Counted from the stretch's first letter, positions 57,279 to 63,990 are shown. The stretch is DNA of 64,000 nt from Alphaproteobacteria bacterium (GCA_965242595.1 OZ251464.1:1278235-1342234); one strand, 5' to 3'. Notes: generated by a model from the letters alone, not told the origin. Program-made: numbers and translations.

Positions 57279-60137
57279 TCACCATCCTGGCAGGACAGCA
57301 TCGGCGCCGGCCAGGGCGCGGCGGATGGCCGGCTCGATGGCAAGCCGTAGCTCGAGTCGCATCGCATCGCCGCGCCGCCATGGAAGGCCGCCATGGAAGG
57401 CCGGACTAGCGCCGGCGATGCGCAGCTGGGCGGCGGCCGGGCCGCCCGGTGGGCGCTCCAGGGCGATTTCCAGGGCGGTGAAGCGGAAATCGGACAAAGG
57501 CGCCGGACGGGCGGCGGCCGGGCCGGGGGGCAGATGGCGCAGCCGCCCCGGGGCCTCGGCCGCCAGGCTTGCGCCCTCGATGGCGATTCCGGCGGGCGAG
57601 AAGGTCAGCGGCAGACGCCCGCCGATCCGGCCCTCGCCGGTCAGCCCCGTCACGGGAAAGCGGGCCAGCAATTCGGCCAGTTCCACGCCCTTCGCCTCCA
57701 GGGTGAGCGCGTTCGGGGCCGCGCCGGGGTGGATGCGGGTGGGCGCCAGCGCCAGGCGGCCGCCGGCGAAGCTGGCCGCGGCGCCTTGCACGTCAAGGCT
57801 GCCATCGCCGGGGAGGGTCAGCGCGGCCTCGATGCCGGTCAGCGTCACGCCGCCCAGGGCCAGGCGGCGCGCCGTCAGCCTGTGGCCCCCCGCCGCCCCC
57901 GTCGTCATCGTCATCGTCGTCGTTGGCGGCGCGATGGCGGTGAGCGCGACCTCGCCCTCCAGCCCTTCTACGGCGATGGCGCCGGACCGGGCGGCCAGGT
58001 CCAGCAGCAGCAGCCGCCACGCCTGGCGCCAGCTGCCGTGTTCGCGCACCAGCTCGCCGCGCAGCTCGAAGCCGCCTTCGGCCTCGTCGATCGGGGCGCC
58101 ATAGCGGGGGGAAAGATCGACCGGCTGCACGCCGCCGGCCTGGAAGGTGATCGCCGGCAGATGCAGCAGGGCGCGCAGCTGCCCGTCCTCCGCCCGCCAG
58201 TGGCCTTCGATATTGACCAGATAGCGCCCCTTCACGCCGGCGCCGGCCATGTGCAGATTGGCCTCCATGCGCGCATCCTCGCCCCTGGGCCAGGCCGGGC
58301 GCAGGGTGGCATCGGCGCGGGCCGGGGCGAAACGGGCCGGGCGGCGCAGATCTTCCAGGGTGGTGGCCGTCGCTTCCACCTGCGGCCAGGGCGACAGGCC
58401 GCTGTTGTAGGAGGCGAGGACGGTGAGGCCGGCCAGGCGCATATCCGGCCCGGCGATGGCGAGGTCGCCGCCGCGGGCCTCCATGGTGCCTTGCAGGTGG
58501 TTCAGGCCCAGGCTGCCCAGGCGCAGGGCGATGCGGGGCAGCAGGCCGGCGACGCTGGCCGTCGCCGCCCCGCCCTCCAGGCCGTCCACCAGCAGGTCGA
58601 AGGCGGCGGCGGTGGGGCCGGTTTTCACGCGCGCGTCCCAGCTCCATTCCCCCGCCAGCCTTTCCAGCACCAGCAGCGGCAGATGCTCTGCCACCAGTTC
58701 GAGGGAGAACGGCTCCAGCGTTCGCAGGCGGGGATGGGCGAGGCTCTCGATGTCGAGCCAGGCGGTCTCGGTCAGGCGCAGATAGAGGCGCCTGCCGTCG
58801 CGTTCGACGGCGAGCGGCAGTTCGGCCAGCAGCCCTTGCAGCGTCAGGCCCGCCCCCGGCAGCGCCAGCCTTTCGGCCCGCAGCAGGGCGCCGGGGCCGG
58901 CGCGGGCCAGCAGCCGCCCATCCTCGCCCGCCAGCGTCAGCGGCAGGTCGAGGGCGGCATGGTCGAACACCGCCCCGCCCGCCGCCCCGCCCACCGTCAG
59001 GCGGGCGAAGCCGGCTTGCAGCTGGGCGCTGGCCGGATCGCGCCCGCCCCCGTCCCCGCTGGCGACCGCCAGCGCCAGGGTGGCGCCATCGGCGGCGACG
59101 GTCTCGCCCAGGGCCAGGCCGGCGGCGTCCAGCCGCCCGGTCGCCGTCACGGCGGAAAACTCACCTTCGGCCAGGGCGGCCAGCGGCCCGGCGGCGGCGA
59201 AGGTCAGCCGCGCTGGGGCGGCGATGGCGAGGCGGGCGAGCTCCAGACCCTGGCTGGCGGCGGCCTCGCCGCTGGCCTCCACCAGCCAGCGCCCGCCCCG
59301 GAGCTCGTCACGACGCCCGGCCAGCGCCAGCCGGGCCGCGAAGGGCGTCCCCTCGCCGCCGAAGGCGAGCTCGCCCTCCAGGGCGCGCCCGTCCCAGCGC
59401 GCCTCCAGCGCCGCCGGTCCCAGGGCGCGCCCGTCCCAGCTGGCCTGGCGCGCTTCCAGCGCCGCCTCCACCAGGGCGGGGGCCGCCGCCCCCGGCGCCC
59501 AGTCCAGCGCCACGCGCCCGGTCAGCGCCCCGGCCCGCAGGCGCGCATGATCCAGCGCCCCTTGCCGGACGGTGAACAGCGCCCGCAGTTCCGGCCCCGC
59601 CACCGGCGCCAGTTCCAGGGTGCCGGCGGCGCTGGCGATAGCGCCATCCAGGCGCCAGCGCCCGCTGCCGGTTCGCCGGTCGGGGCGCAGCACCGCGTCC
59701 AGGCGCAATCCGGTCGCCCCCCAGGGGGTGGCGATGCTGGCTTGCAGGTCTTCGAGAACCAGGACCGGGAAGGGCAGCGCAGCCCAGGACGATTCGGCCC
59801 CGGACGGTTCGACCCAGGACGGGCCGGTGAGGTCCAGCCTGGCCCCGGCGAGGGTGAGGCGCTCGCCCTGCCCGCGCAGCAGGGTGGCGGGGCGATAGGC
59901 GATGGTGGCCCGGGCGATGCTGCCGCCATCCGCCAGGCGGAGGTCGTGGACGATGGCGCGGGCAAAGCCGATTTCGGCCACGCGATAGCTGGCGCCGGCC
60001 AGCGGCGTGTCTTCCAGGGCGTAGCGGAGCGCCCGTTCGGCGATCTCGGCCCGCAGGGCGAAGGCCAGGGCCGCGCCGAGCAGGAGCGCGGCCAGGACCG
60101 CCGCCAGGATCGTGACTGCCCCGAACCGCCCCCTCAT
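57279..60137 (-). CDS. YdbH/AsmA-like large membrane-anchored protein (DctA-YdbH-type repetitive beta-rich architecture)
   Basis: N-terminal TM MRGRFGAVTILAAVLAALLLGAALAFAL followed by about 900 aa of degenerate repeats. Codon usage is coherent, and the opposite-strand ORF is G/R/Q-rich antisense noise. Confidence 0.55.
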   Translation of the reverse strand: MRGRFGAVTILAAVLAALLLGAALAFALRAEIAERALRYALEDTPLAGASYRVAEIGFARAIVHDLRLADGGSIARATIAYRPATLLRGQGERLTLAGARLDLTGPSWVEPSGAESSWAALPFPVLVLEDLQASIATPWGATGLRLDAVLRPDRRTGSGRWRLDGAIASAAGTLELAPVAGPELRALFTVRQGALDHARLRAGALTGRVALDWAPGAAAPALVEAALEARQASWDGRALGPAALEARWDGRALEGELAFGGEGTPFAARLALAGRRDELRGGRWLVEASGEAAASQGLELARLAIAAPARLTFAAAGPLAALAEGEFSAVTATGRLDAAGLALGETVAADGATLALAVASGDGGGRDPASAQLQAGFARLTVGGAAGGAVFDHAALDLPLTLAGEDGRLLARAGPGALLRAERLALPGAGLTLQGLLAELPLAVERDGRRLYLRLTETAWLDIESLAHPRLRTLEPFSLELVAEHLPLLVLERLAGEWSWDARVKTGPTAAAFDLLVDGLEGGAATASVAGLLPRIALRLGSLGLNHLQGTMEARGGDLAIAGPDMRLAGLTVLASYNSGLSPWPQVEATATTLEDLRRPARFAPARADATLRPAWPRGEDARMEANLHMAGAGVKGRYLVNIEGHWRAEDGQLRALLHLPAITFQAGGVQPVDLSPRYGAPIDEAEGGFELRGELVREHGSWRQAWRLLLLDLAARSGAIAVEGLEGEVALTAIAPPTTTMTMTTGAAGGHRLTARRLALGGVTLTGIEAALTLPGDGSLDVQGAAASFAGGRLALAPTRIHPGAAPNALTLEAKGVELAELLARFPVTGLTGEGRIGGRLPLTFSPAGIAIEGASLAAEAPGRLRHLPPGPAAARPAPLSDFRFTALEIALERPPGGPAAAQLRIAGASPAFHGGLPWRRGDAMRLELRLAIEPAIRRALAGADAVLPGW

Positions 60138-60168
60138 GCTCCCATTCACGCCCCCGTCATGCACCCAT

Positions 60169-63757: not shown

Positions 63758-63990
63758 CGCCGGTCCTCGTCGCTTTCGTAATGGTCTTCGCGGCGCCGGA
63801 TCGCCTTGCGCATCTCCTTGGCGATCAGCACCAGCACGACGCAGGCGGCGAAGCCGTAGAGGGTGTGGAAGGTGGGCAGCGCCTCCCAGGGGTGGGAGAC
63901 GTGGCGGTGAATGACGAAATCGGCCGCCAGGGCCAGGGCGCAGGCACCGGCCAGGGCGGCGATCAGGGCGGTGACGGTTCTCTGTTTCAT
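63754..63990 (-). CDS. Small membrane protein (78 aa, 2 TM), translationally coupled to the MrpD-like gene
   Basis: MKQRTVTALIAALAGACALALAADFVIHRH...TLYGFAACVVLVLIAKEMRK. May extend beyond the window edge. Confidence 0.35.
   Translation of the reverse strand: MKQRTVTALIAALAGACALALAADFVIHRHVSHPWEALPTFHTLYGFAACVVLVLIAKEMRKAIRRREDHYESDEDRR

Follow-up and report, generated by a model that had tools for sequence, protein, structure and literature searches.

Towards the end of a 64,000-nt stretch of alphaproteobacterial DNA (GCA_965242595.1, OZ251464.1:1278235-1342234; hereafter the window, with coordinates counted from its first letter), what are taken to be the last two genes of an Mrp antiporter operon are followed on the same strand by coxG, coxS and coxM and then by a ydbH-like gene, and no gene for the molybdenum-binding large subunit CoxL is in view. 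The reading preferred here, to which a probability of roughly 0.6 is assigned, is that the 3' end of the Mrp operon is joined to a coxGSM string, the CoxS and CoxM proteins of which would work with a molybdenum large subunit encoded elsewhere. The window was compared with related loci, which are given as L-numbers (L083, L001 and so on). Of these, L083, in which the homologue of the 563-aa product of the final Mrp gene (MrpD3) is 93% identical, served as a stand-in for the sequence past coordinate 64000; its synteny with the window extends down to an ATP-binding cassette transporter at window position ~50 kb. Relatives of the 563-aa protein were collected by an alignment-based scan of a genome collection, which found 586, and the best 80 loci were inspected. 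A scan from the CoxM side supplied 80 metagenome loci, which were pooled with genome loci to give 86 CoxM-relative loci.

On gene order and protein similarity, the cox genes of the window are classed as those of a form II carbon monoxide dehydrogenase (CODH)-type cluster, within the xanthine-oxidase family, minus coxL. Form II clusters are characterised by the order coxS-coxL-coxM and by an AYRGAGR motif, and encode putative CODHs of uncertain function (PMC7645674). As in such clusters, coxG leads in the window, CoxS and CoxM are close homologues (55-76% identity to their counterparts in the coxG-coxS-coxL-coxM clusters of relatives) and xdhC and mocA follow. Unlike them, the window has no coxL, coxD or coxE that could be found in its 64 kb, carries ydbH and an ankyrin-repeat gene inside the cluster, and has the cluster joined to the end of an mrp operon. 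The absence of CoxL from view, remarked upon in the first-pass annotation, was borne out by tblastn searches of the whole window with the CoxL proteins of two relatives, the best match having E=0.7. Large open reading frames (ORFs) considered as CoxL candidates all proved to be other genes: an 802-aa ORF at 53201-55609 is threonine dehydratase (with mocA before it in another frame), and ORFs of 875 and 725 aa at 38.7-43.5 kb are topoisomerase I and an RNB-domain (RNase II/R-type) ribonuclease, respectively.

Relatives indicate where coxL would have been. In L003, L007 and L164 it lies between coxS and coxM, filling ~2.4 kb at the site of the 30-nt gap that separates these genes in the window. 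The CoxL proteins of L003 and L007 are 783-788 aa in length with all three molybdopterin-enzyme domains; AYRGAGR is present in the L003 and L164 proteins, and a motif search gave no match in that of L007. The order in L164, mrp-(CYTH)-coxG-coxS-coxL-coxM-ydbH, is the arrangement of the window plus coxL, while L002 is L-less as the window is, yet retains ynbE-like, ydbL-like, coxD, coxE and xdhC genes after ydbH. In L083, ydbH is followed directly by the two parts of a split xdhC gene and mocA. The simplest history would start from an ancestral string of mrp, coxG-coxS-coxL-coxM, ydbH(-ynbE-ydbL) and coxD-coxE-xdhC-mocA; coxL, lying between coxS and coxM, would then have been cleanly deleted, ahead of the split between L002 and the window lineage. 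Losses of ynbE/ydbL, of coxD/coxE and of the CoxG membrane anchor would have come later, and the insertion of the ankyrin gene between ydbH and xdhC, in opposite orientation, would be an event of the window alone.

A succession of losses of this kind could also mean that the cox genes are functionless leftovers of a decaying cluster, carried along by read-through from mrp. The stepwise disappearance of coxL, then of ynbE/ydbL, coxD/coxE and the CoxG anchor, together with the insertion of the ankyrin gene into the cluster, fits that idea, as does the state of L004, which could be its end point: there, a 65-codon coxG remnant with an internal deletion and a premature stop (11711-11905) stands 13 nt past mrpD3, with no coxS or coxM after it. 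The L004 coxG is a pseudogene remnant, and shows that the cox cluster can go while mrp stays. In the window, however, every reading frame is intact. Ratios of nonsynonymous to synonymous divergence (dN/dS) against L083, L001 and L002 are 0.20-0.28 for coxG, 0.18-0.28 for coxS and 0.21-0.30 for coxM, at synonymous divergence (dS) of up to ~0.7, and are as low as those of mrpD3 (0.17-0.34), which with threonine dehydratase (0.15) was used for comparison. The xdhC and mocA genes, for which codon alignments were based on high-scoring segment pairs against L083, gave 0.28 and 0.21 for the N- and C-terminal parts of xdhC and 0.49 for mocA, and purifying selection on these and on coxG, coxS and coxM is thus similar to that on mrpD3. 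Identity between the window and L002 is higher for CoxS (81%) than for MrpD3 (72%), which also runs counter to decay.

The cofactor ligands point the same way. All eight cluster cysteines of CoxS are present (Cys51/56/59/71 and Cys110/113/145/147), as are the AGGHTL and TIGG motifs of CoxM, the best relatives of which in the PDB are glyceraldehyde oxidoreductase and CutM/CoxM. Of the positions with a conservation of 90% or more among homologues of the coxS-coxL-coxM type, the window keeps 70/73 in CoxS and 73/75 in CoxM, and its clade as a whole keeps 69-71/73 and 71-75/75. Since dN/dS is low and the iron-sulfur and flavin adenine dinucleotide (FAD) motifs and family-conserved positions are kept, the surviving cox genes are judged to be functional and not dead, and their persistence as mere debris is distinctly improbable. 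Of the strongly conserved positions in CoxS, one only has changed across the whole clade: residue 28 (window 61446-61444) is Cys in 4/4 window-clade members and Val in 95% of CoxL-linked homologues.

The genes for cofactor loading are retained as well. MocA makes the cytosine-dinucleotide form of the molybdenum cofactor, and XdhC is a molybdenum-cofactor insertion chaperone. The xdhC gene is split in the window (55107-56101), in L083 (16331-17319) and in L002 (21365 onward) with an identical frame offset and a 4-nt overlap. Since the same offset and overlap recur in three loci and purifying selection acts on each half, this is best regarded as a conserved two-gene arrangement and not as a frameshift error or pseudogene. 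That xdhC and mocA are retained under constraint speaks for the continued production of one or more molybdenum enzymes with the cytosine-dinucleotide cofactor. On the preferred reading, CoxS and CoxM would assemble with a large subunit supplied in trans, the cofactor of which would be loaded by XdhC and MocA, and electrons would probably pass from molybdenum to FAD by way of the two [2Fe-2S] clusters, and finally to a quinone carried by CoxG. One option in the first-pass annotation had been that CoxSM serves a catalytic subunit that is distant or unidentified; with coxL gone and CoxG, CoxS, CoxM, XdhC and MocA intact and constrained, this was the better of the two.

Several observations weigh against a large subunit encoded elsewhere. 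No CoxL was found within 10 kb on either side in L083, L001, L002 or L166, and none from the L-less genomes (window, L002 and L166) appeared among the best 120 matches to L003 CoxL. The latter point counts weakly, and the search is uninformative since the matches listed were at least 72% identical and the known orthologues in L007 and L164 share only 63-67% identity. CoxS of the window clade is 69-72% identical to CoxL-linked CoxS, against 75-78% expected from MrpD3 distances, and this extra divergence could reflect a change of partner. The loss of coxD/coxE and of the CoxG anchor, together with the L004 pseudogene, looks like erosion still under way, and the retained xdhC and mocA genes could serve other molybdenum enzymes. 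Finally, the 4-nt overlap of mrpD3 with coxG and the recurrence of Mrp-cox adjacency (see below) argue that the link between the two systems is not pure accident.

Among the CoxM relatives, coxL lies between coxS and coxM in 51 loci, usually with coxD-coxE-xdhC-mocA next, and after coxM in three; in 24/86 loci, coxS stands directly before coxM. L-less and coxL-bearing states are interspersed in the CoxM tree. This and the MrpD3 tree are neighbour-joining, single-protein and poorly resolved, and served only to show that neither the L-less nor the cox-linked state is limited to one clade. The frequency and scatter of the L-less pairs, and their maintenance under purifying selection, are what would be expected if CoxG-CoxS-CoxM were a portable output module, passing electrons from [2Fe-2S] to FAD to quinone for a partner outside the xanthine-oxidase family, or acting alone as a flavo-iron-sulfur quinone reductase. 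No CoxL was seen within the available flank (~6-10 kb) of the long-flanked L-less loci L087, L089, L103, L125, L141 and L166. The best hint is given by L142, in which genes for a 159-aa poly-4Fe-4S protein, a 615-aa aldehyde:ferredoxin oxidoreductase (AFOR) and a ThiS/MoaD-like protein (6559-9216) stand between coxG and an L-less coxS-coxM pair, the AorC flavoprotein being absent from the cluster. In L160, however, an AFOR operon at the coxL site between coxS and coxM (4705-9485; ThiF-like, 4Fe-4S, AFOR and Pyr_redox_2 flavoprotein genes) is inverted and brings its own FAD subunit, so that insertion need not mean partnership. In L120, a CoxL gene shares a convergent operon with xdhC and mocA at a distance of 2.7 kb, which shows that the large subunit can be supplied from outside the S-M pair. 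In the window, moreover, xdhC and mocA, which are specific to cofactor loading in the xanthine-oxidase family, are kept and constrained, nearly all positions conserved in CoxL-bound CoxS and CoxM are kept, and no alternative catalytic gene stands out as a candidate. A portable module of this kind is therefore considered rather unlikely for the window. That tungsten-type AFOR genes are embedded in the L-less cox clusters of both L142 and L160 is an observation in its own right.

The six minus-strand genes from the 78-aa membrane protein to YdbH are real at the positions in Table 1, as first annotated, with strong Pfam or NCBIfam matches for five of them and none for the 78-aa protein. Third-position GC of 0.87-0.91 favours the minus-strand frames over antisense ORFs, and the long plus-strand ORFs are shadows of the minus-strand genes. 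Direct reading confirmed the GTGA overlap between the small membrane-protein gene and mrpD3 and the 4-nt ATGA overlap between the mrpD3 stop and the coxG start, and gave spacers of 74 nt ahead of coxS, 30 nt ahead of coxM and 4 nt ahead of ydbH. A consensus scan for promoters and terminators over 55-64 kb, which is weak evidence at 70% GC, predicted no such site in the string from mrpD3 to ydbH, the coxG-coxS spacer included. It seems probable that mrp transcription reads through into coxG-coxS-coxM-ydbH.

Table 1. Position, strand and supporting evidence for features of the window
Feature	Coordinates	Strand	Evidence or remark
Two-helix membrane protein, 78 aa; gene 9 (small subunit) of a ten-gene Mrp operon of group-3 type	63754..63990	-	
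MrpD3, 563 aa; third antiporter-like subunit, final gene of the Mrp operon	62066..63757	-	Proton_antipo_M E=1.9e-36
CoxG, 155 aa; SRPBCC quinone-shuttle protein	61602..62069	-	COXG PF06240 E=2.5e-37, residues 5-144
coxG-coxS spacer	61528..61601	-	AGGAGG 8 nt ahead of coxS ATG
CoxS, 170 aa; small subunit, xanthine-oxidase family, two [2Fe-2S]	61015..61527	-	Fer2_2 E=3.9e-33, Fer2
CoxM, 271 aa; FAD-binding medium subunit	60169..60984	-	FAD_binding_5 E=2.6e-46, CO_deh_flav_C E=2.7e-07
YdbH/AsmA-like protein, 961 aa	57279..60164	-	PF11739 E=2.7e-39, residues 27-926
Ankyrin-repeat protein, 263 aa	56301..57092	+	Ank_2 E=3.6e-64; flanks 56102-57278
XdhC N-terminal part (XdhC_CoxI), first half of two-gene XdhC chaperone	55787..56101	-	87% identity to L083, no stops
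XdhC C-terminal part (Rossmann)	55107..55790	-	XdhC_C E=2.6e-40; 89% identity to L083
MocA-like cytidylyltransferase	54421..55113	-	NTP_transf_3 E=3.5e-39; 76% identity to L083

The window ends 10 nt upstream of the ATG of the small membrane-protein gene, so that the cluster in view is truncated and not complete. In L083, L001, L002, L164 and L166, eight further Mrp genes lie upstream of the small gene on the same strand, namely mnhE, mrpF, mrpG, an MbhD/MbhE-type gene, mnhB, mnhC and two more Proton_antipo_M genes, giving the order mnhE-mrpF-mrpG-mbhD/E-mnhB-mnhC-mrpD1-mrpD2-small-mrpD3. Since the same eight genes precede it in five relatives, the first two genes of the cluster are most probably genes 9 and 10 of an Mrp operon. 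Across the best 80 of the 586 relatives, the same order of ten genes was met with in Alpha- and Gammaproteobacteria, Latescibacterota, Myxococcota, Opitutales, Gemmatimonadota and Nitrospirae; the operon closes with mrpD3, and the small gene nearly always stands between mrpD2 and mrpD3. Besides the five relatives, about 75 loci have MrpB, C, E, F, G and MrpA C-terminal-type genes in one operon with those of the D/A class. The 78-aa protein has hydrophobic segments at residues 9-27 and 38-56, and its gene has a dN/dS of 0.20 against L083; searches of Pfam and NCBIfam returned no family match for it.

The 563-aa protein was initially described as divergent, which proved not to be so: it is a full-length member of the curated Mrp subunit-D family NF009310 ('Na+/H+ antiporter subunit D'), scoring 641 bits over residues 4-527 where the cutoff is 564. 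Its architecture is MrpA/NuoL-like as judged by Foldseek, the top matches of which were MrpA (9a6h_A, 7qru_A and 6z16_A) and NuoL chains at E ~1e-13. Sequence comparison with the PDB gave antiporter-like subunits of MBS, Mbh and Mrp as the best matches. In the AlphaFold2 model (predicted local distance difference test score, 71; predicted template modelling score, 0.74), a 45-residue helix at 487-531 and a terminal helix at 537-560 are seen, both with low local confidence, and on this model the protein looks like an MrpA/NuoL-type subunit, in which a lateral helix is followed by a terminal transmembrane helix.

Group-3 Mrp clusters have an irregular gene order and duplicated mrpD genes (PMC5703873), and the Mrp operon of the window appears to fit this group. 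Like other group-3 (CPA3) systems, such as the Aphanothece halophytica cluster, the operon in the relatives of the window has the full set of E, F, G, MbhD/E (the C-terminal part of MrpA), B and C genes, in irregular order, with several D-like genes and an MrpA/NuoL-like subunit with a lateral helix; the Proton_antipo_M antiporter-like subunits are shared with the structures 6Z16, 7QRU and 7D3U. It differs in having three D/A-like genes and the extra 78-aa two-helix subunit, which lacks a family, and in the order E-F-G-D/E-B-C-D, which resembles that of archaeal MbhA-H; of these genes, the window contains the last two. As with other Mrp systems, the complex would be expected to exchange Na+ or K+ for H+ at the expense of the proton-motive force.

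Given that Mrp modules form parts of the redox pumps Mbh, MBS and complex I, Mrp and CoxGSM might be envisaged as a single energy-coupled membrane complex in which electron flow is coupled to ion translocation and an anchorless CoxG docks on the membrane part, the other of the two options in the first-pass annotation. The likeness to Mbh (6CFW), MBS (6U8Y) and complex I extends to the best PDB matches (MBS and Mbh) and to a redox module encoded beside antiporter genes. The genes for the small subunit, MrpD3 and CoxG are strung together by start-stop overlaps, and tight spacing is kept in L083, L001, L002 and L166. Adjacency was counted in those loci with enough flanking sequence, which were 47 on the Mrp side and 23 on the cox side (at least 4.5 kb upstream). 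Cox genes are near in 4/47 and Mrp is near in 4/23, compared with a chance expectation of ~0.5% that two loci of a 3-4-Mb genome fall within 10 kb of each other; adjacency arises at no fewer than five separate places in the MrpD3 tree, and in every adjacent case coxG is the gene closest to mrp.

Conversely, the ten-gene operon is complete without cox in ~90% of loci (43/47 have none nearby, and in the non-alphaproteobacterial phyla sampled it is always without cox), and most cox clusters of the window type (19/23) have no Mrp nearby. Spacing and orientation vary: the clusters abut directly in the window clade (L083, L001 and L002 included) and in L166, are parted by 0.6-5 kb and unrelated genes in L164, L007, L121 and L135, and diverge over a 110-250-nt intergenic region in L003 and L061. 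L004 keeps mrp with only a coxG pseudogene. Unlike Mbh, MBS and complex I, operons of the window type have no homologues of MbhM/NuoH, MbhJ/NuoB, MbhL/NuoD or MbhN/NuoI; no coupling subunit of the NuoH, NuoB or NuoD type was present among the called genes and Pfam matches of the window or of the L001, L002, L083, L164 and L166 operons. Since such complex-I-type connecting subunits are lacking, a redox-driven Mrp-Cox pump is unlikely, and the small membrane protein and MrpD-like protein, which had suggested it, are the end of a self-contained Mrp operon. A single energy-coupled complex can be set aside as very improbable indeed. To judge from relatives, the MrpD-like gene does lie in an mrp operon, one of two findings that, it had been said at the outset, would together overturn the original view; as to the other, a coxL gene in its normal place upstream of the small membrane-protein gene, none is there, and there is no sign in the sequence that mrp is transcribed separately from cox.

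The loss of the membrane anchor of CoxG in the window subclade was a further point in favour of such a complex. CoxG extracts quinone, docks on CoxM/CoxL, and is equipped with a flexible linker and a C-terminal transmembrane anchor (PMC12202499). Like the CoxG of the Mycobacterium smegmatis molybdenum CODH (Kropp et al. 2025, PMC12202499), the window protein has an SRPBCC COXG domain and is encoded with CoxS and CoxM, but it terminates ~10 residues past the domain with no linker or C-terminal membrane helix, and its locus encodes no CoxL to form the CoxM/CoxL docking surface. CoxG is similarly tail-less in L083 and L001, whereas L002 keeps the linker and membrane helix, a tail of 40-90 aa with a hydrophobic helix being present there and in about two thirds of homologues. 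However, anchorless CoxG proteins also occur in nine other cox clusters, eight of which have no Mrp on the locus (the exception being L135). Over and past the coxG stop of the window (~61576-61608, minus strand), an 11-nt unit, tccttgaccgc, occurs three times in tandem, the first copy with one mismatch; since 11 is not a multiple of 3, the repeat puts TGA in all three frames. It occupies the place where relatives encode the CoxG linker and membrane helix.

The pairing of Mrp with cox, at first remarked upon as unusual, is rare (4/47 Mrp loci), yet it recurs in some Alphaproteobacteria. Since DUF192 is conserved upstream of mnhE in L002, L083, L164 and L166, adjacency above chance is explained in part by shared ancestry. 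From the distribution of the two clusters, it is plausible that Mrp and Cox are linked in regulation or physiology; the link would at most amount to shared transcription or regulation, with no physical redox-driven pump. Three independently distributed modules, Mrp, cox and ydbH, would on the preferred reading stand head-to-tail on one strand. It is also conceivable, though quite unlikely, that CoxGSM is a self-sufficient transferable module that is selected beside, and co-expressed with, group-3 Mrp and plugs into other catalytic partners, such as the AFOR of L142. If so, the recurrent adjacency of mrp and coxG, tandem as well as divergent with a promoter region in common, would be the sign of a genuine functional unit linking a quinone-reducing dehydrogenase to cation/proton homeostasis. 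A full-text literature search gave an unrelated metatranscriptome paper, and neither Mrp-cox clusters nor L-less coxGSM were found described.

All of the components belong to known families, and in the arrangement an L-less form-II-type cluster, ydbH included, is joined to the last gene of a group-3 mrp operon. If the large subunit is indeed encoded elsewhere, the case is mostly a lesson in annotation, in which the window edge made the tail of an Mrp operon look like an odd lone subunit, and the coxL gap is a clean deletion documented by relatives. The comparison further suggests that S and M subunits of the xanthine-oxidase family, with CoxG, can last long under purifying selection without a neighbouring L (about a quarter of the closest loci), which raises the question of which catalytic subunit the orphan CoxS, CoxM and CoxG serve. 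The neighbourhood of Mrp and coxG-led clusters, far above chance in some Alphaproteobacteria, suggests that a respiratory dehydrogenase is co-regulated with ion homeostasis. Neither the persistence of S and M nor the adjacency upsets current understanding, and the arrangement is a modest curiosity as opposed to a new machine.

The ydbH gene follows coxM directly in L001, L002, L083 and L164 as well, and is thus an old neighbour in the lineage. Its product is predicted to be a lipid-transfer-type envelope protein. Like YdbH of the Escherichia coli YdbH-YnbE-YdbL system (AsmA-like lipid transport), it has a full-length YdbH-like domain and an N-terminal membrane anchor (hydrophobic segment at residues 19-37), and L002 has ynbE-like and ydbL-like genes downstream. 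Unlike that system, the window lacks ynbE and ydbL (tblastn with the L002 YnbE-like and YdbL-like proteins gave no match in the window), ydbH stands between coxM and xdhC, and the gene is fast-evolving, with a dN/dS of about 0.6. The ankyrin-repeat protein encoded beyond it has an N-terminal signal or lipoprotein-like sequence, and GC in its region is 0.63, compared with ~0.70-0.77 nearby. Since the gene is missing from the otherwise syntenic L083, where xdhC begins 67 nt past ydbH, it is regarded on this comparison as a recent lineage-specific insertion that has parted ydbH from xdhC-mocA. Two sigma-70-like minus-strand sites predicted by the consensus scan at 56198-56157, just upstream of xdhC, are candidates that could now drive xdhC-mocA separately.

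Two further L-less arrangements were encountered among the relatives. In L087 (503-4719) and L089 (6583-10795), coxG-coxS-coxM lies directly behind genes for a DUF4212 small protein and a sodium:solute symporter (SSF), with no CoxL, xdhC or mocA found within 10 kb. This makes two cases in which L-less coxGSM follows a sodium-linked membrane transporter. In L061, where the cox cluster is divergent from the mrp operon, genes for an extracytoplasmic function (ECF)-type sigma factor of 190 aa and for a 314-aa product that matched no family and is possibly an anti-sigma factor stand between coxG and the L-less coxS-coxM pair (1991-3464, minus strand), and a DUF6614 gene follows coxM.

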